A stretch of 12,347 nucleotides of DNA, taken from a virus (taxonomy: Duplodnaviria > Heunggongvirae > Uroviricota > Caudoviricetes). The translations under genes and the position numbers were made by a program. This document shows positions 1-12,347 of this stretch, piece by piece; the first letter of the stretch is position 1; every line of letters begins with the position of its first letter. The DNA lies in the IMG/VR virus record IMGVR_UViG_2541047882_000003, positions 1 through 12,347 of that record. One strand, written 5' to 3'. Under the pieces are notes generated by a model. It had not been told where the DNA came from. It did not search any database and was given only the letters and a program-made list of their open reading frames with translations.

Positions 1-372
1 TTACTTCCTGCGTTTATCCTGCTTTGTATGCCCGTGCTGAATGCCCCGCAGTGGATCTTCTTTTTTCAGGTCGATCCCCATGTCCGTTAGTGTTTTTGTG
101 GCGGCGGTTCTTATGGCACAAATCAGGTCTCTTTCCGGTTCCCGGGTTATGGTTGCCTTCCGGATGCATGCCGTTCGTCGTTCCGTTACATACTGACGCG
201 CTTCATCACTTGCCGCCTGTTTCAGTAACTCACCCCAGCGATTAGCCGCCCGTCGCCATAAACCTTTCGCTTCCAGTTCTTCCGCTTTGTCATCATGCAC
301 CATAAGCATAATCCCATTGATACCTGTTAAATCTGAATGGTTGGTTTCTGTTCTTTTGATAATTTTCCGCAT
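1..372 (-). CDS. PerC-family-like small transcriptional regulator (paralog 1)
   Basis: Complete ORF of 123 aa (ATG as reverse complement of 370-372, TAA as reverse complement of 1-3). Motif DDKAEELEAKGLWRRAANRW matches the conserved core I associate with PerC/Pch activators and is shared with the 95-aa paralog at 4277..4564 (DSKAEELEAKGLYRRAAARW...CIR.A). No good SD at 372; alignment with the paralog suggests the real start may be the internal ATG at 303. Confidence 0.6.
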   Translation of the reverse strand: MRKIIKRTETNHSDLTGINGIMLMVHDDKAEELEAKGLWRRAANRWGELLKQAASDEARQYVTERRTACIRKATITREPERDLICAIRTAATKTLTDMGIDLKKEDPLRGIQHGHTKQDKRRK

Positions 373-387
373 AGCTTATTGTATGAC

Positions 388-399
388 AGTACTGTCCCA
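388..399. promoter_or_regulatory. 12-bp perfect palindrome GACAGTACTGTC in the 45-bp divergent intergenic region (candidate operator)
   Basis: Read directly: GACAGTACTGTC equals its own reverse complement, flanked by ATTGT...ACAAT. It lies between the divergent starts at 372 (-) and 418 (+). Confidence 0.35.
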
Positions 400-417
400 C
401 AATAAGGAGTTGCACGC

Positions 418-708
418 ATGAGAATGACCAGGCACAAAAAACAGATCCTTGAACTCTACAAACCTGAGTATCGCGATTGGGTGCGGGTGGAGGCTGGAGA
501 TCCACCTTTTGATGTTCGTGGTGTTACAGTGCTGCTCTATGGTTCCGAATATCAGCGATATCACATAGAGGCAACACGAAGGACGCTAAACGCTATGGTT
601 CGTGATAAGTTGCTGGAGCGTGTGAAAGTCCGTGAGCCACGTTTTGATGTGCGTATTGGTGGCGATGGTGCGCATTGCACGGTAATCCGCTATGGCCTGG
701 TAAGGTAA
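418..708 (+). CDS. hypothetical protein (96 aa)
   Basis: ATG at 418 preceded by a strong SD, AAGGAG at 405-410 (7-nt spacer). The ORF ends about 70 nt before a stem-loop plus T-run. No family recognised. Confidence 0.6.
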   Translation: MRMTRHKKQILELYKPEYRDWVRVEAGDPPFDVRGVTVLLYGSEYQRYHIEATRRTLNAMVRDKLLERVKVREPRFDVRIGGDGAHCTVIRYGLVR

Positions 709-738
709 GCCATCGGGTAAATCAGATGATTAAATCAC

Positions 739-760
739 CAGAATGTAAATTTACATTCTG
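739..760. repeat. 22-bp perfect palindrome CAGAATGTAAATTTACATTCTG between convergent genes
   Basis: Read directly; it is self-complementary over 22 bp. Could be a hairpin contributing to bidirectional termination or a protein-binding site. Confidence 0.5.
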
Positions 761-776
761 CCAGCCACCAGCTACC

Positions 777-803
777 CTCCTCAAAATTGAGGAGCCTTTT
801 TAT
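777..803 (+). terminator. candidate rho-independent terminator for the 418..708 gene
   Basis: 7-bp stem CTCCTCA/TGAGGAG (777-783 pairs with 788-794), 4-nt loop AAAT, then CC followed by TTTTT. Confidence 0.45.
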
Positions 804-810
804 CAACTGG

Positions 811-1101
811 TTACCGCCGTAACCGCTCCGGCTTCTTCCACTGGTAAGTCTTTTTCTCGCTCTCCCGGTACATCTGCACGCGGCGACGGTAGGCCAATAA
901 CTCGAGTACCCTGGTGCGTATGTCGCGCATATCCACTCCGTTAAGCTCAATACCGTCACGGCGCATCACCTCAGCCACCACACGCGCATAGTTCTCAGCG
1001 ATAACGCTGTCCGGCTGCGTGGCCTCCTGTTTGCCTGCTGGTGGTCTGATCCCGGCAATCTGGCGAATCATTTTGAGCATTTCGGCTTCGGTCATTGTCA
1101 T
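811..1101 (-). CDS. hypothetical protein (about 96 aa; alternative starts at 1095 or 1125)
   Basis: Long ORF 811..1125. GGAGG lies immediately upstream of the tandem ATGs at 1101 and 1095 (minus-strand sequence GGAGGCCATGACAATGACC), so I favour one of these over 1125. No family recognised. Confidence 0.5.
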   Translation of the reverse strand: MTMTEAEMLKMIRQIAGIRPPAGKQEATQPDSVIAENYARVVAEVMRRDGIELNGVDMRDIRTRVLELLAYRRRVQMYRESEKKTYQWKKPERLRR

Positions 1102-1390
1102 GGCCTCCAGAGGATGGGGAAACAATGCCGTAATTGTGGCGACTGATAACGGGAAGGTGAAGCGCGTTTAAGCTGGTGGATGTGGTGCCATGTTTCCCAC
1201 CAATGGTGGAAAAGCCCACCAGCGCAACGCAGGACGCATAAAACCATTGCGATGACTCATGACAGGGGGATAACCACAAAAACAACGTCAGCGGCGCGAT
1301 TCTGGCTGTTCCTGTCCGGGATGTGCATACGTATTACGTACGCAGTTAATCCGGCATAACGCATGACGTTGATGAAACGCCCCGATCATC

Positions 1391-1465
1391 GCGGGTCCTC
1401 CTGGATGGGTACCCTTACCGCGGGGCGACGGACGCGCGGAAAAAGGCTGGTTTTTGCATTTTCAT
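1391..1465 (+). other. cos-like site A (cosQ-like CGGGTCCTCCTGG, cosN-like dyad CCGCG-N10-CGCGG at 1418-1439); orphan, no terS downstream
   Basis: Alignable to the phage lambda cosQ-cosN junction as I remember it (lambda ACGGGTCCTTTCCGG...GTTACGGGGCGGCGACCTCGCGGG). The 36-bp core CCTTACCGCGGGGCGACGGACGCGCGGAAAAAGGCT is identical to inverted copy C at 4085..4170. Confidence 0.5.
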
Positions 1466-1865
1466 GGCGGCGGCAGCATGTGTGGTAATATATTGATAAT
1501 TAAAAGTTATTTCTGTTTTCACCTGTACAATCTTTTTTCTCCCCTGTCATTAGACCAGTTCGCAATCAATTGAAATATATAAATAAATCTGATTTTCACC
1601 TGCCAGATGGAGTTGCCAGTGTCAAATGTGAGCGGAAGCGGTGATGCTTATCACTGAATCATGCCGCATCACGATACCAGACTCCCGGTACCGCTGCGTG
1701 ATAACCCACAAGGCTGGTGGCGATGCGTTATGGTCCGTGCATTGCCATTCTCCTGGCCTGGTGGCATTATCCGGCATGAACGAGCGGTTATTCTCCGTAC
1801 TCTTAATCGTTGTTCATGGTTATTTTCTTTGTGGTAGCTGACTTCTTGATGTCCTTATCCTCCTG

Positions 1866-1890
1866 CCCCGTAATCACGGGGTATTTTTTT
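1866..1890 (+). terminator. rho-independent terminator (plus strand)
   Basis: CCCCG (1866-1870) / CGGGG (1877-1881) stem, 6-nt loop, followed by TATTTTTTT. The T-run is on the plus strand only. Confidence 0.5.
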
Positions 1891-2424
1891 ATCTGTGATT
1901 TGCTGTTCTTCGCTGTGTTGGTATGGGGAGTTCTGGCAATGGTTCAGGCCGTCGCTTTCCTGGTACGTGATTTTTTACGTTCATTATTGTGCTGGTGGCA
2001 GCGTCACGGTGTGTCACGACATGTCACCATCACGTCACGCTGATTGCGAAAGCCAGGATTAACCAGTACCGGAACGGGTAGCCCGGTGTATTGTTACCGT
2101 CCTGCCTGCTGGTGGAGTAATTGATAACGGTTATCATCAACGGGAGGGGCGGATCAAATCCCTGCAGTCCTGGCTGTCCGGGACCGCCCGCCTACCCTTG
2201 TTCACATCGCCGCAGGTTCGAAAACTTTTTTTTGGGAAGGTGTGCACAGACTTGATAGGTAAAACCTATCAGGTAAAGCCACGTCAAACCCGCGCCATTG
2301 CTGGCATCGTTAAAAAAACTCACTCCACCAGCAGGCTAAAAAACTGTGATTTTTCCAGCTTTTGGGGCTCAAAAAGGGCTCCCTAAAAAAACTCTCACAC
2401 TGTCGGAGGGGGCGGGAAATTTTC

Positions 2425-2640
2425 ACGGGTCCTTTCCGGGATCTGAAACACCGCGGGGCGGTAGACGCGCAGGATTTCACTATTTATGAAAATTTTTCAG
2501 GGGAAAAGCGTGTCGGTACTTCTCGCGCATAACTGTTTGTTTTTATTAAAATCAACCACCAGAAACATACGACATCATAAAGCCAAAAAATCCTGTTTTT
2601 TTGGCGTTTCATGTCGGAGGTGGTTTTTGATAATAAATTG
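2425..2640 (+). other. lambda-like cos site B (cosQ, cosN-like, cosB R3/I1-like elements); orphan, no terS downstream
   Basis: ACGGGTCCTTTCCGG at 2425-2439 is identical to the lambda cosQ 15-mer. After a 16-nt spacer comes CCGCGGGGCGGTAGACGCGC (lambda has GGGCGGCGACCT here). CTATTTATGAAAATTTT at 2480-2496 is identical to lambda positions just right of cosN. Further lambda-cosB-like text follows (CATAACT..GTTTTTATTAAAAT, then a dyad). The ORF at the Nu1-equivalent position is only 25 codons and unrelated to Nu1. Confidence 0.65.
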
Positions 2641-2756
2641 GTGGATTAATGTTAATAAAAATGTTTTTACTACCTGATGGAAACAACCGGAAACGTGCCG
2701 GAGAAATTACGGCAACAGAAAGGTGAGTGACAGCCGCGCAATTATTGAACAAAACT

Positions 2757-2953
2757 GAGAAAGGATCTGATAACGTCATTTTTGGCCCAAAATGCCTACT
2801 GTCAGATCCTTTCTTTTTTTGATGATTTTACGATTAAACAATGAGTTACAGAGAAGAAGAACGGATCTGACTTTTCCCGAAAAATTTTCATAAACAGTTA
2901 AGAATTGCGCGTACCCGTACCCCCGGCGCTTAAGGTTCCGGGAAGGACCCGCC
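2757..2953 (-). other. lambda-like cos site D, inverted relative to B (cosQ-like, cosN-like, R3-like, distal 13-bp inverted repeat)
   Basis: On the minus strand: GCGGGTCCTTCCCGG (reverse complement of 2938-2953), a GC dyad GCGCC..GCGC (reverse complement of 2905-2933), CTGTTTATGAAAATTTTTCG (reverse complement of 2878-2897, against lambda CTATTTATGAAAATTTTCCG), TCCGTTCTTCTTC..TAACT (against lambda TCCGTTCTTCTTCGTCATAACT), then a 13-bp perfect inverted repeat AGAAAGGATCTGA (2758-2770) / TCAGATCCTTTCT (2802-2814) resembling the lambda GAAAGGAAACGACAG...CTGTCGTTTCCTTTC dyad. Confidence 0.55.
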
Positions 2954-3067
2954 GGAGATAGCTACCATAAGGCGTAATTAAATATCCGTGGATGTGCCAC
3001 GGAACAACCAGCTGAATACAGGTCAGCGTGATGACGGGAAATAAAGAGAATGGTTGCGAATCCTCCA

Positions 3068-3092
3068 CCTGGTGAATCTCCTGCACTACCTG
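3068..3092. repeat. 25-bp direct repeat copy 1 (CCTGGTGAATCTCCTGCACTACCTG); duplicate of the terS 3-prime end
   Basis: Exact 25-bp match to 3444..3468, which encodes the last 8 codons of the terS-like gene. Copy 1 is not in an intact gene. Confidence 0.85.
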
Positions 3093-3364
3093 TCATTTTT
3101 GCGCAAATACCCCTGGCATTTCTAAGCATGATCAACCTGATCATTGTTCGCGGTTTTTACGTGGCAAGGCCAGTAATTACGGGGCTTACATCAATGTTTA
3201 TTCCGCCCATCTCTGCGCAAAACAACTTAACAAACCTTAACATCACAGGCGGAACCATTGCGCAAATCTGGAGGCTTACCGCACGCACCAGCCTGATACA
3301 TTGCCAGAATGAACGAGGTGCGACACAATGTGTGTGCATGTCTTACTCATTGAACCTCAATCAA

Positions 3365-3397
3365 GGCGCATCCTTAGCGGTGCGCTTTTATTTTTTT
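3365..3397 (+). terminator. candidate rho-independent terminator (plus strand)
   Basis: GCGCA (3365-3369) pairs with TGCGC (3380-3384), with possible extra CC/GG pairs, followed by TTTTATTTTTTTG. Confidence 0.4.
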
Positions 3398-3435
3398 GTC
3401 GTTCCCTGCTGGTGGATGTTTTCCGGTACCGCGAA

Positions 3436-3945
3436 TTATTCCCCCTGGTGAATCTCCTGCACTACCTGCGGCGTGCTGTCGTGCCAGTCGTTAGCCTGTA
3501 TCACTCTGGTAGTAATTTGCCTGCACAGGTCATCAATAATCTGCCTGACGCGGTTTACTGCGTTCTGATTGATGCCTGCATCGTGCGCCAGAATGTCGGG
3601 GAGTTTTGCCAGTTCCTCGCTTAAGATTTTCCCAAAAATAACCAACTCCCTGCGCACATCCACGGCGGGGATAAGTTCAGCCGTTTCCTGCTCGAACTTA
3701 AGGCGCTCACGCTCAGACTGGTACCAGGCTTTACGGCTTTGTGGATCCATGTCTTCGAGTGATGCGGGGGCGGGTATATTCATGAATGCGCTGATTATAT
3801 CCGTCAGTCGGTACAGCTTTAATTTTTCATGCCCTCCGGCTGGCTGAATGTCCTTTAGCCTTTTCGCTACTGTCTGGCGGCAAACTCCCGCCAGTTCTGC
3901 GAGTTGATTGATATTAAGTTTCAGGTTTTTAAGCTCCCGATCCAT
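3436..3945 (-). CDS. phage small terminase subunit, lambda Nu1 family (TerS-like); longest ORF extends to 3984
   Basis: N-terminal LNINQLAELAGVCRQTVAKRLKD...EKLKLYRLTDIISAF aligns with the lambda Nu1 winged-HTH region (VNKKQLADIFGASIRTIQNWQEQ...NEVLYDSAAVIKWY), and the length is similar (169-182 aa against 181). GGAGG lies 4 nt upstream of the ATG at 3945, so I favour that start. No large terminase ORF follows. Confidence 0.7.
   Translation of the reverse strand: MDRELKNLKLNINQLAELAGVCRQTVAKRLKDIQPAGGHEKLKLYRLTDIISAFMNIPAPASLEDMDPQSRKAWYQSERERLKFEQETAELIPAVDVRRELVIFGKILSEELAKLPDILAHDAGINQNAVNRVRQIIDDLCRQITTRVIQANDWHDSTPQVVQEIHQGE
3444..3468. repeat. 25-bp direct repeat copy 2 (within the terS 3-prime end)
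   Basis: Exact match to 3068..3092. Confidence 0.85.
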
Positions 3946-4084
3946 TCGTCCTCCGGTAGTTTTAAATGCGTATCGTGCGCTCATCTTTCAGTGGGTTAAA
4001 AGTGTTCTGTATGTTGAACAAAAAACACCCCAAATTAACATAGTAAAAATATATTTCATTTTAATTCAACATGTTGGAAAGATG

Positions 4085-4170
4085 ATGATGACGGATGAAA
4101 ATGTAAAAATTAGCCTTTTTCCGCGCGTCCGTCGCCCCGCGGTAAGGCCACCCCTCCGGAAGGACCCGTA
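4085..4170 (-). other. cos-like site C (inverted copy of A) about 140 bp upstream of the terS-like gene
   Basis: On the minus strand: ACGGGTCCTTCCGG (reverse complement of 4155-4168), then CCGCGGGGCGACGGACGCGCGG (reverse complement of 4120-4141), then AAAAAGGCT..ATTTTTACATTTTCAT. This is the lambda arrangement cosQ-cosN-cosB followed by Nu1, with similar spacing to the terS start. Confidence 0.55.
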
Positions 4171-4191
4171 AAAAAAGCCGGAGTGTTCCGG
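4169..4191 (-). terminator. rho-independent terminator after the PerC-like/FinO-like operon
   Basis: On the minus strand GCCGGAACACTCCGGC (6-bp stem, 4-nt loop) is followed by TTTTTTT, about 85 nt after the stop of 4277..4564. Confidence 0.6.
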
Positions 4192-4276
4192 CTTCGTCTG
4201 TGTATGTGCGCATATGCAGGATTTTATGTTATCCGCCCACGGGAGTGATGGTCATTTTTCAGGATAATATCCGGCA

Positions 4277-4564
4277 TCACTGGTTACCGCCAGGCTGCTT
4301 CGGGTAGTTCCGCCAGACGGATTTACCCGCGTCTTCCATCCCCATCACCGCATGAGTGCGGTTTACAGCCTCTTTCAGTGCCCCGAAGTTATCCGCCATA
4401 ACGGGTGGGCGTGCTGCCCTGCGGATGCATTCCGCGCGACGCTTTGCCACCTGTTCGCGCTCCTTATCGGTGTTCACCAGCTGCATGACCTCAGCCCACC
4501 GCGCCGCCGCTCTCCGGTACAGGCCTTTAGCCTCCAGTTCTTCCGCTTTGCTGTCACGAATCAT
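4277..4564 (-). CDS. PerC-family-like small transcriptional regulator (paralog 2)
   Basis: 95 aa with DSKAEELEAKGLYRRAAARWAEV, matching the paralog at 1..372. Its start overlaps the stop of the upstream gene (ATGA at 4561-4564), indicating translational coupling. Confidence 0.6.
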   Translation of the reverse strand: MIRDSKAEELEAKGLYRRAAARWAEVMQLVNTDKEREQVAKRRAECIRRAARPPVMADNFGALKEAVNRTHAVMGMEDAGKSVWRNYPKQPGGNQ

Positions 4565-5097
4565 GCGCCTGTCTTCTCCTTTGTCGCCTGACGTTTGCGC
4601 TTTTCATTCAGTGCTGCCAGCCGCGTTTCTGCCTCCTGCTGTTCCTGTGGTGTCACTTCCCCACATGGCTGGCCTTTCAGGTCGTAACGTGTGCCACCAG
4701 CCATTAAGGCGCGGTAATAGCGCGGAGACTGCGCATAAGATGCCAGCGTCGCACGTAATGCCCCCGGCCCGAATGTCAGCCCCCTGGCGGCGATATCCTG
4801 TATCAGGTCGTCGAATATCCCCACCTTAAGCGGCTTCGGTGCTTTATGGCTGAATAAGTCAGGCCACATCTCAGTGAGGCGGTTAACGCGTCGGCGGTTT
4901 TTGCGCTGCCTTTTGGTCATATGCTGCCACGGTGTCGCCCCTGCGGTCTTCTGTTTGCGGCTCTGCTGTGCGTTCTGATTATCGGGTATCACTTTATGCG
5001 CCGATGTGGTTTTATCCTGCTCTTGTGCCGCCTGCGTCGTTTTCTGCGGCGTGCCGTAAATGCCTTTCGGTTTTCGGTTAATGGTCAGCTTTGTCAT
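4561..5097 (-). CDS. ProQ/FinO-domain RNA-binding protein
   Basis: 178 aa. PLKVGIFDDLI and LRATLASYAQSPRYYRALMAGGTRYDLKGQPCGEVTPQEQQEAE align closely with the E. coli ProQ N-terminal FinO-like domain (PLKIGIFQDLV...LRSALRLYTSSWRYL..GATRVDLDGNPCGEL) as I remember it. It is preceded by a basic, Q/K-rich N-terminus. Confidence 0.8.
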   Translation of the reverse strand: MTKLTINRKPKGIYGTPQKTTQAAQEQDKTTSAHKVIPDNQNAQQSRKQKTAGATPWQHMTKRQRKNRRRVNRLTEMWPDLFSHKAPKPLKVGIFDDLIQDIAARGLTFGPGALRATLASYAQSPRYYRALMAGGTRYDLKGQPCGEVTPQEQQEAETRLAALNEKRKRQATKEKTGA

Positions 5098-5211
5098 GCC
5101 TTCCCCTGTAATTACGCTGTTCGCTGTTGTGAATTAAAACGGTATGTTATCCCCGTACGGGTCATCGTGCTGGCTTGTCTGTTGTTTTGCCCTGTTCAGT
5201 GCGTCAGTGGC

Positions 5212-5559
5212 CTAGCCCTGTTGACCTTTTTTGCCGCCCGGTCGCGCCGTTCGCGCACTGATTACGCTGTCTGCAATAACCTGCCAGCCCTGCCGCGTTT
5301 CCCCGTTCTGGCCTGTCCACTGGCTTACCTGCATGTTACCCGCCACGCTCACAAGTTCGCCTTTCTGGTGCTTTGCCAGTGCATCGGCCTGTCTGCCAAA
5401 TGCCAGGACGGATAACCACATCGTCGCCGTTCCGTCATCTGCCTGGCTGCACGGCAGGGGAACCGCCATACTCGCCATCGCCATTTGTGTCCCTTTGCTG
5501 GTGGTCTTTAACTGCGGGTCAGCCACCAGCCGCCCGTAAGCCGCTATCTGTGCTGTCAT
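5212..5559 (-). CDS. single-stranded DNA-binding protein-like (OB fold, no acidic C-terminal tail)
   Basis: 115 aa. IAAYGRLVADPQLK and TMWLSVLAFGRQADALAKHQKGELVSVAGNMQVSQWTGQNGETRQGWQVIADSV align with the E. coli SSB core (ILVGNLGQDPEV...[52 protein letters not shown]). GGAGAG lies 9 nt upstream; the start overlaps the upstream stop (ATGA). Confidence 0.7.
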   Translation of the reverse strand: MTAQIAAYGRLVADPQLKTTSKGTQMAMASMAVPLPCSQADDGTATMWLSVLAFGRQADALAKHQKGELVSVAGNMQVSQWTGQNGETRQGWQVIADSVISARTARPGGKKGQQG

Positions 5560-5906
5560 GCTGTATGCTCTCCGTTTTTAACGTTGATGGTTGTCACCTG
5601 TTCCGCTGTGCTGTTAGCCGGATACCATGCAAGCGTTCCCGGTTCATCTGAAAGAATGAATTTTGTGTCAGGCAAATACAGGCATTCGCAATATCCCTCT
5701 GCGCTGTGATGTGGTGTCATTCCCATATCACCAGTGAGTACCGGTAATATTTCAGAGTAAACCTCAGAATCACCGGAATAAAACACATCGCAAATCGCCC
5801 ATGCAGCAACCGGACTCCACCACTCGCCGCAATCGTCATTCCGGAATCTTGCCCACCAGCCAGGAACAGCCGGAGAAATGCTTTTTGGTATGGCTTCAAG
5901 AAACAT
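5556..5906 (-). CDS. hypothetical protein (116 aa, Trp-rich), translationally coupled to the SSB-like gene
   Basis: ORF with GAGGTG 7 nt upstream of the ATG at 5906. Its stop overlaps the SSB-like start. No family recognised. Confidence 0.55.
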   Translation of the reverse strand: MFLEAIPKSISPAVPGWWARFRNDDCGEWWSPVAAWAICDVFYSGDSEVYSEILPVLTGDMGMTPHHSAEGYCECLYLPDTKFILSDEPGTLAWYPANSTAEQVTTINVKNGEHTA

Positions 5907-5982: not shown

Positions 5983-6133
5983 TTTTGCGGGTTATAATCG
6001 CGCTTTTGCGGGTTATTTAGGCCCATTTGCGGGTTATTTGGGGTATTTTGCGGGTTACGATTTTTCTGTCATTTCTTTAATAATCATATGGATACTGACT
6101 TATCCACAGAAATAACCCGCATAACCCGCAAAA
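5983..6133. repeat. iteron array (TTTGCGGGTTA x4 direct at 21-22 bp spacing, plus 2 inverted copies) with an AT-rich spacer; candidate replication origin
   Basis: Direct copies of TTTTGCGGGTTAT at 5983-5995, 6004-6016, 6025-6037 and 6047-6058. AT-rich stretch 6061-6100. Inverted copies ATAACCCGC (6112-6120) and ATAACCCGCAAAA (6121-6133). Located immediately downstream of the replication-protein stop at 6159. Confidence 0.6.
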
Positions 6134-6158
6134 TTTTCACCCTACACGCGAGAAAAAA

Positions 6159-8282
6159 TTAATCTTCTTCGCTTTCTGGCTGGAACATCAGCACGTAAAA
6201 AACATGCTGCTTCCCCCCAATCCTGCCGAGCGCCTTTTTCTTGTAACGGCGGTCGTTACCCTTTTCCAGCATCCCCGCCGCATCAAGCGCCCTTGCAAAA
6301 TGCGACGGATTAAATCCCTGTGCTATCTCACCCTCAAATACATGCGGGAACGTGTAAAAACGGAACTCGTCATCTTCGTTTCTGATACTCCCCTTTCTGT
6401 ATCCGGCAAGCTCTTTAATCGGTAAATCACGCTCGTCGGTGTTGGGCCACGGAAGGTATCTGCTGAATCCGAACGACGCTAAAAAAGCCTCTGCCTGTTC
6501 AACCATCTGTTTAAACTCCCTGTTACCCGTGCCGAATTCCTTCACCCAGGCATTAAAATTATGCTGAATGGCATCGCGGCATTCCTGCTCATCCCAGCCA
6601 GTAACATGACCGGAAAGCACAAGCGCGGCCTCCAGTATGGCGAAACGCTCACCCACACGGTGTACCTGCTCGCCGTAGCTCTCCGGTATCAGGTTGCGCC
6701 ACCGTTCTCGGCATGACCTTACCGTGTCCTTTGCCTCCTGCTGGTGGTCTGCCAGCCATTTAACCCATTCACGACCCGCCGCCCCGTGATTTTCTGTCCA
6801 GGCATCTTTTAACGCGTCTGCGTGCGCCTTTCCGGTGCTGTATTCGTGAAATTGTGTGGCTTTTTCCATCGGCACGTTAAGCAGGCGGACAAGCTGCCCC
6901 GCCTTGACTTTTATCCCCTCCGTTTTGAGGAATGTTTCAACGTCCATTTCTCCGGTACTGATTGCCACCGTTCTCCAGTGTTTTATCTCCCTGTTGCCGC
7001 CGTCCTTCGCCCCCTGTAATTTCCCGGAACCGTTAAACAGCGTATAAGCAGACGTTGACACCTCCCGCGCGTTTCCGGCCTGGCCTATTTCATCCAGGGG
7101 TAACAGCCCGTCGTTGTGTGCCTCTGCCTCGTTGGCGATACCTAACGCTGTACCGTACCAGGTCAGCCGTTGTGCGTCCGGCTCTCCCCATAAACTTGAT
7201 GCGATGTTCTGTGTGGTGGTTTTCCCTGCCGATGACTGTTCGAAAAGATGTACCCCGAAGCCGTCAGCACCCACCAGCCCGATTAATGGTGCAGATAACG
7301 ATACCGCCACACCCAGCATCATGGACGGATTACCACCAGCCAGCCGCGCAACGGTATCGCGCCAGCCTTCCGCCGTTCCTGCCACGGAATAGCCATTAAC
7401 AGCGGCAGTTTTTCCGGTAAACAGAATCGGTTTTTCAGACTCACCAATGACCGAACCGTCCGGCATGATGTACGCGCCAAAATGCCAGCCCGTTGTTGTG
7501 CTTAACTGCCATTCCTCATGGTTTCCGCTTAACTGCATCCAGTCAGCCAGGATAGCCCTGTATTTGCCGTTGGTTGTCACGTTCAGGCCGTGGTCTTTCA
7601 GCAACCGCCAGCCGTCACGGTCGCCAATGCCACCGCACGGAATCGCCATTGTGATGACTTCATGATTTGCTGGCTTTTTCCAGCGCATCACGCGGTAATG
7701 CTCTTTACCGATTGTCCCCGTTCCCAGTAGTTCAAGCGGGGAACATAACCACGTCTCAGGCCGGATAATTTCGCCTGACTGCTTGTCAACTTTTGGCGTT
7801 ACCCAGAAAACACCATCGGCGCGGCTTTCAACGCGGGGCTTTAATTCATCATCGCTATAGCTTCCTGTGGCTTTTTTCTTTAAGGGCAACACCAGACTTT
7901 CCCCGCGCTCGTATTCGTCTTTCAGCCGGGCAAGCTGTGGTGTCCAGTCCTCCAGTAAATCGCCGTTCTCGTCACAAAAACAGGCTTCCTTAACACCAGC
8001 CACTGCCAGCAGGGTTTCAATCTGTAGCGCCAGTTTGTCATCCAGTTTTCCGGCACGTCTGACGATGGCGCGTGACCGACCCTCATCCACAATACGCAGG
8101 TTTTCCAGATTACCCAGGTCACGCCGTCCGAGATAAACAGGTGGTATTTTGTCGCCGCGCTTTCTGGCTTCTCCGCCCTGCATGTAATGCTCTGCGTGGC
8201 TGTATGCGTCATCCCCCGCAAAAATCACTGCATCCTCGCCTTTATCTTTCGGTAACAGTTTTACGTTCGGTGCCAGTTTCAT
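6159..8282 (-). CDS. replication protein with P-loop NTPase domain (putative primase/helicase-type initiator of the element)
   Basis: 707-aa ORF. Walker A-like SSAGKTT and Walker B-like LLPLDE are visible. Its start overlaps the upstream stop (ATGA at 8279-8282) and an iteron array follows its stop. Assignment to a specific primase/helicase family is not verified. Confidence 0.75.
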   Translation of the reverse strand: MKLAPNVKLLPKDKGEDAVIFAGDDAYSHAEHYMQGGEARKRGDKIPPVYLGRRDLGNLENLRIVDEGRSRAIVRRAGKLDDKLALQIETLLAVAGVKEACFCDENGDLLEDWTPQLARLKDEYERGESLVLPLKKKATGSYSDDELKPRVESRADGVFWVTPKVDKQSGEIIRPETWLCSPLELLGTGTIGKEHYRVMRWKKPANHEVITMAIPCGGIGDRDGWRLLKDHGLNVTTNGKYRAILADWMQLSGNHEEWQLSTTTGWHFGAYIMPDGSVIGESEKPILFTGKTAAVNGYSVAGTAEGWRDTVARLAGGNPSMMLGVAVSLSAPLIGLVGADGFGVHLFEQSSAGKTTTQNIASSLWGEPDAQRLTWYGTALGIANEAEAHNDGLLPLDEIGQAGNAREVSTSAYTLFNGSGKLQGAKDGGNREIKHWRTVAISTGEMDVETFLKTEGIKVKAGQLVRLLNVPMEKATQFHEYSTGKAHADALKDAWTENHGAAGREWVKWLADHQQEAKDTVRSCRERWRNLIPESYGEQVHRVGERFAILEAALVLSGHVTGWDEQECRDAIQHNFNAWVKEFGTGNREFKQMVEQAEAFLASFGFSRYLPWPNTDERDLPIKELAGYRKGSIRNEDDEFRFYTFPHVFEGEIAQGFNPSHFARALDAAGMLEKGNDRRYKKKALGRIGGKQHVFYVLMFQPESEED

Positions 8283-9070: not shown

Positions 9071-9290
9071 TTTCACAATCAGCAATCAGGATAGCCCTGG
9101 CCTCATTCAGTGCCATATCAGCACTAAATTGCATAACAGCCAGTGAGTGAGGAACGAAAGCCCCGGCATATTCTGTTTCGCTGGTGGCGTACTTATGCGC
9201 CTTGTCTGCGATAACAGAAATATCAATCAGCGCATCAATCAGTGTTTTTATAGCTTCGGCGGCTGCGTCCGGACGGGTGTTATTGCACAT
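9051..9290 (-). CDS. hypothetical protein (79 aa)
   Basis: ATG at 9290 with AGGAGG upstream; the start overlaps the stop of the 68-aa ORF (ATGTGCAATAA). Its C-terminus is encoded across the G8 tract. Confidence 0.55.
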   Translation of the reverse strand: MCNNTRPDAAAEAIKTLIDALIDISVIADKAHKYATSETEYAGAFVPHSLAVMQFSADMALNEARAILIADCENGGGYA

Positions 9291-9486
9291 GGCGTACCTC
9301 CTGACGAATACGGGCGGCGAATACCATCACGCAACCAGCCGGGGATTGCTGGCGTGCTTCCTGTTCGCTGGTGGCCTCGATGGTAATCACGCGCGGTTGT
9401 GCCGTGCTCAGGGCGATAAAACGCCAGATGTATTTATTCAGGTTGTGCGAGTCCCGCCCTTGCTGGTGTGTGGTATAATTTCTCAT
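9280..9486 (-). CDS. hypothetical protein (68 aa), first gene of the leftward replication operon
   Basis: ATG at 9486 with GAGGT 6 nt upstream. It is the in-frame C-terminal part of the spurious 371-aa track ORF. Its stop overlaps the next start. Confidence 0.5.
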   Translation of the reverse strand: MRNYTTHQQGRDSHNLNKYIWRFIALSTAQPRVITIEATSEQEARQQSPAGCVMVFAARIRQEVRHVQ

Positions 9487-9581
9487 AGCTACCTCGATAC
9501 TCTCGTTATCGTTGGTGGTTAGAGGCTGCGAAAGGACGGCAATCCTTTCCAGCCTCGTTTGCATTGAGTGATAGTTACTCA

Positions 9582-9664
9582 ACTGGATTCCAGTATAATC
9601 ACTAAGTGGAATCCACTTCAAGCATTTTGTTTTGGTCTTTTTCGTGTATACTGGATTCCAGTAA
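9582..9664. promoter_or_regulatory. divergent control region with three odd-length palindromes (candidate operators) overlapping -10-like hexamers
   Basis: ACTGGATTCCAGT at 9582-9594 and again at 9651-9663 (CTGGA-T-TCCAG), and GTGGAATCCAC at 9607-9617. TATAAT at 9593-9598 and TATACT at 9647-9652 on the plus strand. Lies between the minus-strand operon start (9486) and the plus-strand small gene (9683). Confidence 0.45.
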
Positions 9665-9682
9665 TCACAAAGGAAACCAGAA

Positions 9683-9862
9683 ATGGAAAGAGACCATATC
9701 AATAACAAATCACAGAAATTACAGGCTCGCGCCCCGCATGAAGTTGTTGAGGCAATGGAGCAAGTCAAAGAAACGGGCGAGAGTACTGCGCAGTTTATCG
9801 TTACAGCCATGCGTGGCGAGATCAAACGCCGCCAGCGCCGCAAGGCCAAAGAGCAGGAGTAA
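9683..9862 (+). CDS. small ribbon-helix-helix-like DNA-binding protein (59 aa); candidate repressor
   Basis: Not in the supplied track (below its length cutoff). ATG at 9683 with AGGAA 7-8 nt upstream; TAA at 9860-9862. The translation MERDHINNKSQKLQARAPHEVVEAMEQVKETGESTAQFIVTAMRGEIKRRQRRKAKEQE has a strand-helix-helix pattern typical of Arc/CopG-type proteins. Confidence 0.5.
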   Translation: MERDHINNKSQKLQARAPHEVVEAMEQVKETGESTAQFIVTAMRGEIKRRQRRKAKEQE

Positions 9863-9919
9863 CCATCACCAGCGCCGTGGTGCGGTGAACTGTGGCGCAC
9901 AGGGTTATAGGTATCTACG

Positions 9920-10117
9920 ATGACTGACAAATCATTAAAGAAATTATCCTCATCCAGGAAAAAACAACGCAAAAACGCGGTAAGAGAACATGAACAGGAA
10001 AGATTCGCGCCATGTGCGTTTGTCCTTGAAAAGTTCCTTAAAGAGTACAGGCGCACAAAAATGGGATCGCATGCCTGGAAAACATCGCAGCATGGCGATA
10101 CTAAAGAGCAGGAATAG
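9920..10117 (+). CDS. hypothetical small basic protein (65 aa)
   Basis: ATG at 9920 with AGG 8 nt upstream; Lys/Arg-rich. Followed about 100 nt later by a plus-strand terminator. Confidence 0.4.
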   Translation: MTDKSLKKLSSSRKKQRKNAVREHEQERFAPCAFVLEKFLKEYRRTKMGSHAWKTSQHGDTKEQE

Positions 10118-10220
10118 CCCACCAGCAAGCCAGCACACTGATCACATTGCCCACCAGCCGCAAATGTGGCATTGTTGATTATGCTCATGCGTTGGCGATA
10201 ACGTGTAGCTTGTGTCGAAG

Positions 10221-10248
10221 GGCCACCGTAGCGGGTGGCCTTTGTTTT
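10221..10248 (+). terminator. rho-independent terminator for the plus-strand small genes
   Basis: GGCCACC (10221-10227) / GGTGGCC (10234-10240) stem followed by TTTGTTTT. Confidence 0.5.
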
Positions 10249-10399
10249 GCCTGTTATCCGGCAATTGTGGCGCTTCGCCACACGGTTGATATAATTCTCC
10301 TGCACTGATCCATTTTTTTCGCAGCAGGTTAATTGTTCGCAAGGGCGCTCCGGCAACGGGGCGCTTTTTGTTATGTTCATCGCGTTACGCCTCACACCA

Positions 10400-11105: not shown

Positions 11106-12347
11106 TTACACGGCACGGATACCCCTTTTACCACTGGCTATGGTCACTCCGGTAGCTGCGGCCTCTACAAATTCCCCCCACCAGCGCATAAGCACCACGC
11201 GCTTTTCCAGGTAGTTACTTCGGTTATATGCTCGCCTTACCTCGTTTGTGTCCACGTGTGCGAGTGCGGCCTCGATTACGTCCGGCTCGAATCCTTCCTC
11301 GTTCGCTGCTGTACTGAATATGGCGCGTAATCCGTGAGACACCAGCACACCAGCGTAACCCATCCGGCGCAATGCGGCGTTAGCTGTCTGGCTGCTCATT
11401 GGCAGCATTGGATTTTTAAGGCTGGGAAAAACGTGTTCCCTGTGTGCGCTGATTGGCTTCATGGTTTCCAGTACAGCCATAGCCTGACCGCAAAGGGGGA
11501 TCACGTGGTCACGGCGCATCTTCATGCGTCCGGCTGGAATCGTCCAGGTTTCGGCATCGAGATCTATTTCTTCCCAGCGTGCGGCGGCTGCTTCGGCTGG
11601 GCGTGCTACGGTCAGCAGTTGCCACTCAATCAGCAATCTGGTTTGCCGTTCTATGCTGGCGACCGATAAATCGTGCATTAGCTGCGGTAGCTGTTCCGGT
11701 CGGATGGTTGGCATGTGCTTTTTGGTGGGTGAGGGGAATGCCTTGCGGACGTTCGCGGCGGTGTTGATGTCAATCAGCCCACTGTTGGCAGCAAAATCCA
11801 TCACTTCATTGATGCGTTGTAAAACGCGTTTCAGAGTTTCCAGGTTGCCGCGTGCTTTAATGGGTGTGAGTATCTCAACAAAGCGGCGAGCTGTGAGGGT
11901 ATCTATTGGCGTGTTTCCGATGTACGGGAATACGTATTTTTCCAGGGATCGCCAGATATCCTTAATCGTGTTGTAAGCCAGATTCTGGCCTTTTTTCATC
12001 TCGTACCAGTCCGAGGCAACTTTTTCGAACGTGTTGCCCTTTTTCCGACTCTCTGCTTCACGTTTCCGGCGTTCGTGGTCCTGTGGGTCAACTCCCTTCG
12101 CTATGAGTGACCTGTATTCATTCCGTCGTTCTCTGGCATCGGACAGGGAAACATCATTCAGCGATCCGAGGCTGATGATAGTCCGTTTTTTATCTGCCGG
12201 GCGGTAGTACGTAAAACGCCAGATTTTTGATCCGGAGGGTTTCACCAGAAGAAATAATCCTCCACCATCCTGCAGGGTGTATTCCTTTTCCCCTGGTCGT
12301 GCGTTTTTGATCTCCGTGATGGTTAGTGGAGTGGTTTTTCGTGCCAT
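11106..12347 (-). CDS. int: tyrosine-type site-specific integrase, P4-like
   Basis: 413 aa. N-terminal DGGGLFLLVKPSGSKIWRFTYY arm-binding-like region and C-terminal HGLRAIFST ... AALAHVDTNEVRRAYNRSNY catalytic region (H-x-x-R and the terminal Tyr) are typical of P4-family integrases. The ATG is the last three bases of the window, so the upstream region and att site are not visible. Confidence 0.9.
   Translation of the reverse strand: MARKTTPLTITEIKNARPGEKEYTLQDGGGLFLLVKPSGSKIWRFTYYRPADKKRTIISLGSLNDVSLSDARERRNEYRSLIAKGVDPQDHERRKREAESRKKGNTFEKVASDWYEMKKGQNLAYNTIKDIWRSLEKYVFPYIGNTPIDTLTARRFVEILTPIKARGNLETLKRVLQRINEVMDFAANSGLIDINTAANVRKAFPSPTKKHMPTIRPEQLPQLMHDLSVASIERQTRLLIEWQLLTVARPAEAAAARWEEIDLDAETWTIPAGRMKMRRDHVIPLCGQAMAVLETMKPISAHREHVFPSLKNPMLPMSSQTANAALRRMGYAGVLVSHGLRAIFSTAANEEGFEPDVIEAALAHVDTNEVRRAYNRSNYLEKRVVLMRWWGEFVEAAATGVTIASGKRGIRAV

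Follow-up and report, generated by a model that had tools for sequence, protein, structure and literature searches.

The exact 25-bp direct repeat described here corresponds, on sequence identity, to one consensus unit of the ori iteron of mEp460/PhiR40_1-type lambdoid phages. The window, that is the whole stretch of 12,347 nucleotides analysed, is a PICI-like phage satellite of E. coli, and the likely helpers of this satellite are phages carrying the same iteron. By analogy with iteron plasmids, we tentatively propose, as a reading that falls a little short of an even chance, that the two units have been kept because the initiator of a helper phage would bind them, and that they would titrate or handcuff this initiator or couple expression of the packaging region to it.

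The satellite is ∼13 kb in length and is inserted beside tRNA-Pro, between yejM and yejO. It has the composition of a PICI-like cos satellite, with an integrase at a tRNA, a replicase of its own, helper-type cos sites and no structural genes. Pfam additionally identifies an SSB, a ProQ/FinO-family protein, PerC and a DUF1441 small terminase (terS) among the island genes, while a tRNA scan and an Rfam scan of the window returned no match. Four cos-like sites of two types are present, two of them being assigned by alignment to what we take to be the lambda cos sequence (cos B and cos C). A second, truncated terS of the lambda Nu1 type (2645-2730, + strand, with a 505-bp internal deletion) is unrelated to the 25-mer repeat. 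The features discussed below are as follows.

1392-1465, + strand: cos A, aligning with the PhiR40_1 cos; inverted paralogue of cos D
2426-2508, + strand: cos B, aligning with the lambda cos; inverted paralogue of cos C
2871-2951, - strand: cos C, lambda-type cos, 117 bp from repeat copy 1
3068-3092 (29 nt from 3064), + strand: repeat copy 1, the consensus phage ori iteron GGTGAATCTCCTGCACTACC with flanks; first 25 nt of the 63-bp satellite element
3068-3130, + strand: 63-bp composite, the iteron followed by TCATTTTT and then GCGCAAATACCCCTGGCATTTCTAAGCATG; kept in several satellite lineages
3093-3439: inter-repeat segment, 347 bp, at a single locus and in this island family only
3099-3106, 3213-3220 and 3258-3265: three TTTGCGCAAA-type palindromes
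3101-3129, + strand: 29-nt stretch, matching part of the Terminase_2 terS gene of Rac-like headful (pac) phages at 26/29 positions
3363-3397, + strand: intrinsic terminator-like hairpin with a T run, convergent with terS and kept downstream of the terS homologue in L008
3436-3984, - strand: satellite small terminase, 182 aa, DUF1441 (Pfam) and phrog_141 'terminase small subunit' (PHROGs)
3444-3468 (29 nt from 3440), + strand: repeat copy 2, the same iteron sequence; its - strand encodes QVVQEIHQ, the C-terminus of the DUF1441 terS
4095-4168, - strand: cos D, mEp460/PhiR40_1-type cos (cosQ-cosN), upstream of terS
5984-6134: iteron-like cluster of the window's own, beside the primase gene
6159-8282: DUF927 primase
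11106-12347, - strand: integrase, adjoining tRNA-Pro

An earlier note on this DNA, made from the letters alone, had reported the repeat, its coding copy at the end of terS (...QVVQEIHQGE), a second copy in non-coding DNA 376 bp away, and three palindromes and a plus-strand terminator in between, and all of these observations hold. In a scan of the window the 25-mer, CCTGGTGAATCTCCTGCACTACCTG, occurs exactly twice, with both copies on the + strand and therefore in direct orientation; no third copy was found in the window on either strand at up to 3 mismatches, and two matches were obtained in 0/200 dinucleotide-preserving shuffles. When one mismatch is allowed, a repeat search extends the repeat to 29 nt (3064-3092 and 3440-3468); reading of the sequence shows a sharp right boundary and, to the left, a weaker ungapped similarity with 10/14 identities. 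No credible gene contains copy 1. A 56-aa 'hypothetical protein' ending beside it is annotated in some RefSeq records; we do not regard this open reading frame as a gene, since part of it coincides with a cos-like site and it matches no family. Both copies are present within the 2700-4300 stretch of at least 17 complete E. coli genomes at 97–99.4% identity, and in independent IMG/VR and metagenome contigs (L024, L028, L039 and L047). The occurrence of the two-copy layout in so many independently assembled genomes and contigs excludes the assembly artefact that the note had named as its refutation. Single-nucleotide differences are seen in copy 2 of L013/L046 and L008, and in copy 1 of L002, L006 and L035.

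A scan of IMG/VR with the 22-nt core of the repeat returned satellites together with six phage contigs of 12–45 kb that carry it in a tandem array, described by Tandem Repeats Finder as 4.8 copies with a period of 24 and the consensus GGTGAATCTCCTGCACTACCCCCT. The array lies inside a gene of 271 aa, the product of which begins with an HTH_36/DnaD_N domain; DnaC-like and DnaB genes come next. The homologue of this gene in GenBank phages is annotated as 'DNA replication protein O' or 'replication protein' (PhiR40_1, PhiR49_2 and mEp460 gp43) and contains five units. In lambda, the iterons of ori are found inside the initiator gene, and the layout of the phage array matches this arrangement. The 25-mer carries the iteron consensus of these arrays: it is found without a mismatch among the array units in the O genes of six IMG/VR phage contigs and four metagenome contigs, and its 20-nt core (20/20), or 25–28 nt with flanks, is identical to units in L020-L027, L038 and L041. 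The 20-nt core is also exact in mEp460 and PhiR49_2. The possibility that the iteron also occurs near the phage cos was considered and rejected, as in PhiR40_1 it is found in the O gene only.

The same 20-nt core is found in arrays of 38%-GC contigs binned as Clostridia, in which the N-domain of the initiator is merely 36–38% identical. The matches in these 'Clostridia' MAGs are real iteron arrays in distantly related initiator genes and cannot be attributed to chance; given this divergence, the sequence is likely to be constrained by protein recognition and not merely recently shared.

Several features of the satellite point to the same group of phages. The cos-terS region of PhiR40_1 aligns with positions 4169-3644 of the window at 72.5%, and the satellite TerS shares 57–63% identity with its counterparts in PhiR40_1 and mEp460-type phages. 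The best TerS matches among phages are PhiR40_1, PhiR47_1, PhiR55_1, mEp460, Ayreon and 1720a-02 (52–63% identity). There is overlap between this set and the phages that encode the initiator, and the latter also carry a cos like cos D. As the iteron, the closest phage TerS and a matching cos are all found in PhiR40_1/mEp460-type phages, PhiR40_1, mEp460 and their relatives are likely to be the helpers of the satellite.

The repeat is not a replication origin of the phage type. The window contains two units only, with no phased array of at least 4 units spaced ∼21–24 bp apart, and no further iteron-like site was found in it at up to 6/20 mismatches. It also contains no HTH_36 gene, and tblastn of the window with two O proteins gives iteron-encoded peptides only (E > 0.1). 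Without an array and without an initiator in cis, the locus falls outside the definition of a phage replication origin. Nor do we take the 25-mers for the origin of the satellite itself, since the satellites that carry the element use different replicases and the window has an iteron-like cluster of its own by the primase. Compared with the lambdoid O/ori iterons (lambda; P22 gene 18-type; mEp460 gp43), the satellite 25-mer is identical to the array unit and has the same flanking CCCT...CTG, but the satellite units are isolated, two in number and 376 bp apart, instead of forming a phased array of 4–5, and they are situated outside any initiator gene.

Iteron plasmids offer a possible parallel. 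Iterons outside the origin, such as P1 incA and F incC, titrate or handcuff the plasmid initiator and thereby limit replication. The satellite 25-mers resemble these in being proposed initiator-binding units outside an origin, with the differences that the initiator would belong to the helper phage and that only one or two units are present. In the mechanism that we tentatively prefer, the helper initiator would bind the isolated iteron units in the satellite, and its titration or handcuffing after amplification of the satellite would slow replication of the helper; alternatively, expression of the satellite packaging region may be coupled to the presence of the helper initiator. The satellite would replicate with its own DUF927 primase, and the role of the iteron is most likely not origin firing. 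For titration, one or two isolated iterons would be few unless the copy number of the satellite is high.

Copy 1 forms part of a larger element, in which the 25-mer is followed by TCATTTTTGCGCAAATAcCCCTGGCATTTCTAAGCATG to give a unit of 63 bp. This unit is present in 29/5426 complete E. coli genomes and in at least four satellite groups, the flanks of which are unrelated between groups.

Group 1: satellites of the window type
Group 2: L005, L006, L019, L035, L042 and L043
Group 3: L025, L033 and L045
Group 4: L034 and L048

The carriers differ in their replicase, which may be a DUF927 protein, a RepA-type helicase or another primase. L033 has capsid genes. In several lineages a cos site lies no more than a few hundred bp from the composite, which is on the packaging side of that site; in the window, terS lies between cos D and the composite. 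The DUF1441 gene is absent from L005 and L006, yet copy 1 is still joined in them to the right-hand sequence (3051-3130).

The second part of the composite matches a different phage family. In a related satellite, L007, the identity to the same stretch of Rac-like phage terS (e.g. vB_EcoS-666R9) is 28/28, and in these phages a Terminase_6 terL and a P22-type coat come after the Terminase_2 terS. Headful phages commonly carry their pac site inside terS, and the 29-nt stretch may accordingly be a pac-site mimic. The same iteron is not found in the Rac-like pac phages, where O/ori is different, and each half of the composite thus has its match in a separate phage family. The iteron is absent from L007, where the homologous region contains five occurrences of a TTGACACTTTTTCGCG motif, two of which are partial; these TTGACAC... 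motifs were considered as phage iterons and rejected, there being no phage match apart from the 28-mer. Two further readings of the composite were also discarded. The - strand open reading frame 2962-3144 reads it in the frames of the phage genes (MLRNAR..., SAGDSPGG); in the L025/L033 group, however, a stop codon breaks this frame, and we do not take it as coding. A sigma-54 reading of CTGGCATTTCTAAGCA fails by manual count, the GG-GC spacing being one base below consensus.

The alternative that must be weighed most carefully is that the 25-mer is a functionless recombination linker or scar at a module boundary, and that two modules each ending in the 25-mer were joined to give a direct repeat that has persisted by descent; we consider this possible but somewhat improbable. 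The packaging region is highly mosaic and the flanks switch exactly at the edges of the element. Breakpoints are found at 3050/3051 and 3130/3131 in L005 and L006, with an inverted arrangement in L006; L003 lacks 3432-5614, the deletion beginning 8 nt away from copy 2; and the 505-bp deletion in the second terS is nearby. All satellite copies share ∼10 extra nt on the left (GAAT..TCC.CCT) that are absent from the phage arrays. This common left flank indicates one satellite ancestor and not repeated capture, as a linker captured once would also predict.

That the repeat does recombine is shown by alleles in two complete genomes, L001 (CFIAFB20190172) and L011 (ETEC6335), which align as 1-3092 joined to 3440 onward with a 29-bp overlap. 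Each has a single hybrid copy, composed of the left flank of copy 1, the repeat and the right flank of copy 2, with exactly 376 bp missing. Because both flanks are at least 99% identical to those of two-copy islands, these alleles are better explained as deletions, and we read them as recent and possibly independent deletions between the direct repeats: the two differ in linked SNPs, in island background and in chromosomal context, L011 being beside thiM. Recombination between copies in direct orientation, or slippage during replication, removes 376 bp. Such an outcome is ordinary for deletion between short direct repeats by slipped misalignment or short-homology recombination, given repeats of 25–29 bp at a distance of 376 bp and alleles with one hybrid copy. 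The deletion takes away the palindromes, the 29-mer and the terminator while the island persists, and terS then runs into a foreign tail (...HQVEDSQPF...) and is flagged by PGAP as a pseudogene. The earlier suggestion that the repeat marks a deletion or illegitimate recombination is therefore correct in so far as the spot is prone to recombination, but no relative that retains sequence behind terS has a gene there that is missing from the window.

A linker would, however, leave three observations unexplained. What was captured corresponds precisely to a single consensus iteron of the likely helper; the unit is near-invariant while the adjacent 38 nt and a terS of 80% identity diverge; and the element occupies a similar position downstream of cos across satellite lineages. 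Across 13 distinct satellite contexts, the 20-nt core is variable at 1/20 sites as against ∼8/38 in the adjacent sequence, a contrast that is suggestive only and not significant on its own, and the 25-mer of L008 has 1 change where ∼5 would be expected at 80% identity. A short conserved sequence between variable flanks is also typical of a recombination linker. Binding by a helper initiator would account for the choice and the constancy of the unit, and we retain it as the preferred reading.

It is unlikely, in our view, that the repeat acts as part of an RNA. Here, a + strand transcript would run from upstream of copy 1 to the 3363-3397 terminator and be antisense to the helper O mRNA, to the Rac-like terS mRNA and to the 3'-terminal part of the satellite terS mRNA, with ProQ/FinO as a possible chaperone. 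The matches in both phage genes are oriented so that a + strand RNA is antisense to both, the terminator on this strand is 270 nt downstream and is kept in L008, and a ProQ/FinO-family protein is encoded by the island. The agreement in orientation is nevertheless expected by chance roughly 1-in-4, and copy 2 is beyond the terminator. No convincing sigma-70 promoter was found in the composite or upstream of copy 1; the sole + strand promoter-like match (3301-3329) is downstream of the composite, and the number of matches equals that expected from shuffles. Rfam gave no match in 2700-4300 even at E ≤ 1.

Whether sequence has been lost around terS can be judged from its homologues. The locus L008 encodes a homologue (P0002) with 75% amino-acid and 80% DNA identity to terS, and aligns with the window from cos D across terS to 3358. 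The QV(A/V)QEIHQG tail and the terminator are retained there, as is the 25-mer apart from one change, from which it follows that copy 2 and the sequence downstream are the native end of the satellite terS. The satellite protein stops ∼20 codons past the point where homology to phage TerS fades; these last ∼20 residues are peculiar to the satellite proteins and are unlike the acidic tails of other DUF1441 proteins, those of phages included. In phages, terL (gpA) begins at the stop codon of terS. No terL or other gene was found downstream of the satellite terS in any relative examined, including those that retain the downstream sequence, where terS ends and is followed by the conserved terminator. 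The comparison called for by the earlier note thus speaks against its proposal that a gene, possibly terL, had been removed from behind terS.

The same note had alternatively suggested a second, truncated terS, with copy 1 representing the last ∼39 nt of a paralogous DUF1441 gene the body of which was deleted. This has some attraction: the ungapped similarity continues for ∼14 nt past the 25-mer on the side of the stop codon (10/14), copy 1 is 89% identical over 37 nt to the 3' end of the L008 terS, and duplicated packaging modules are present in the island in the form of the paired cos sites. The suggestion is weak, however, and we regard it as very unlikely. Read in the frame of terS, a TGA stands right before copy 1, and in-frame coding homology does not extend beyond the repeat. 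Copy 1 remains joined to the same non-terS sequence on its right in islands that lack DUF1441 and in islands with unrelated left flanks, and in the latter conservation begins at the iteron and not at the terS codons.

Within the inter-repeat segment, TTGCGCAA is exact at 3099-3106 and 3258-3265 and matches at 7/8 at 3213-3220; these palindromes look like operator or R-site-type protein-binding sites. The open reading frame 3050-3451 (+), the only one of the segment area run on Pfam, had no match there, and neither this frame nor those at 2898-3086, 2962-3144 and 3157-3339 (-) had a match in PHROGs. The terS-proximal end of the segment (3358-3443) shares homology with the sequence that natively follows a diverged terS, while the opposite end adjoins copy 1 in islands that have no terS; with separate homologies at its two ends, the segment is not one inserted unit. 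A target-site duplication or att pair left by a small mobile element in the 3' end of terS, which together with the artefact excluded above we consider extremely improbable, would account for the 'empty-site-like' alleles with one repeat and no insert in L001 and L011, but not for these separate homologies or for a segment that is confined to one locus in 24/5426 genomes and encodes no recombinase.

Satellites are known to copy the packaging signals of their helpers (cos, pac) and to redirect the terminase; in the literature we found no report of a satellite copying a helper ori iteron. The E. coli PICI EcCICFT073 carries several cos sites (cos1/cos2) and Rpp, and provides an example of helper cis-site mimicry (PMC6739421). 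The present satellite is likewise an E. coli satellite with several helper-like cosQ/cosN copies and packaging proteins of its own. It differs in that the copied site is an ori iteron and not a packaging site, and in that its DUF1441-type TerS matches no solved structure, Rpp included, and is for this reason not demonstrably Rpp-like. A more general reading, which we hold to be rather doubtful, is that E. coli satellites carry isolated helper ori iterons in order to sense the helper or to interfere with it, as a decoy or by handcuffing; the iteron, lying within a 63-bp cis-site mimic together with a pac-like stretch and among four cos sites of two types, would then belong to a toolkit directed at several helper families.

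Should the sites prove functionless, they would amount to nothing more unusual than a recombination scar, in a packaging region that is strongly mosaic. If the helper initiator does bind them, capture of a replication initiator would be added to the ways in which satellites interfere with or sense their helpers. The iteron match would then also serve as a simple sequence marker for pairing satellites with helper phages in genome data, and the natural 376-bp deletion alleles would constitute ready-made mutants.

The neighbourhood of the 25-bp direct repeat is not disrupted only in the alleles that retain a single hybrid copy, in which the fused terS is classed by PGAP as a pseudogene 'missing C-terminus' (L001 4417-4869). 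Strain TUM9812 (L003, NZ_CP128926.1) carries a 2.2-kb deletion relative to window 3432-5614, with the loss of terS, PerC, ProQ and SSB, and the left end of this deletion lies 8 nt from copy 2; the repeat neighbourhood is therefore a recurrent breakpoint. Exchange of sequence between the copies is also conceivable. A common terS allele (protein P0001, a cluster of 105 sequences) ends ...HQVE*, versus ...HQGE* in the window (3436-3441). With this ending, copy 2 has the same flanking sequence as copy 1 (TCCACCTGG), and the allele may have arisen through gene conversion between the two copies.

Packaging-related and neighbouring features of the window
1392-1465, plus strand: cos-like site A, matching the PhiR40_1/mEp460-type cos
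2426-2508, plus strand: cos-like site B, matching the lambda-type cos
2645-2730, plus strand: remains of a second terS, lambda Nu1-type (phrog_57)
2871-2951, minus strand: cos-like site C, matching the lambda-type cos
2899-3069, minus strand: 56-aa 'hypothetical protein' annotated by RefSeq, overlapping site C and ending at copy 1
4095-4168, minus strand: cos-like site D, matching the PhiR40_1/mEp460-type cos

The four cos-like sites form two inverted pairs (A with D, B with C), and the island seems to be equipped for two families of cos helper, each pair going with its own type of terS. The Nu1-type gene is whole (194-200 aa) in L002, L005, L012 and L013; in the window its start codon is mutated from ATG to ATT and 505 bp are deleted internally at 2662/2669. 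The 56-aa ORF is probably spurious.

A short stretch of the satellite element next to copy 1 resembles a sequence that Rac-like headful phages carry inside their Terminase_2 terS gene, with 26 of 29 positions identical at window 3101-3129 and full identity over 28 nt in L007 (3009-3036), a related satellite lacking the iteron.

Phage stretch matched by the satellite element
L036 (ON470614.1), about 23229-23256: inside the Terminase_2 terS gene

Judged from this similarity, the 28-29-nt stretch may be a pac-site mimic. Within the homologous region each satellite has its own, different recurring short motif: L007 2986-3200 has TTGACACTTTTTCGCG at five places (two of them partial), and window 3088-3270 contains three palindromes of the TTTGCGCAAA type; these look like protein-binding sites whose specificity has diverged.

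Conservation of the iteron extends far outside the enterobacterial phages. Its 20-nt core recurs in arrays on L015-L018 (GTDB 'Clostridia' MAG contigs), L040 and L044, all of 37-40% GC, where the arrays lie inside or beside an initiator gene and are followed by a very AT-rich stretch. In tblastn searches with the E. coli phage O protein, the initiator N-domain was only 35-38% identical in L015, L018, L040 and L044, and L016 and L017 gave no match. The satellite's own origin is probably a cluster at 5984-6134, directly downstream of the DUF927 primase gene, made up of TTTGCGGGTTA units at a spacing of 21 bp and, at 6110-6134, inverted copies of them.

Other genes of the island
4561-5097, minus strand: ProQ/FinO-family protein, RNA-chaperone-like
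5212-5559, minus strand: SSB
4277-4564 and 1-372, minus strand: PerC-family regulators
9280-10395, minus strand: 371-aa ORF, Icd-like/'transcriptional repressor' PHROGs families

In mEp460 a PerC-family gene directly follows the O gene, and the island likewise encodes two such regulators. The 371-aa ORF has no match in Pfam or PADLOC, and its PHROGs match is limited to the C-terminal ~95 residues; related islands carry much shorter, Icd-like genes at the same position.
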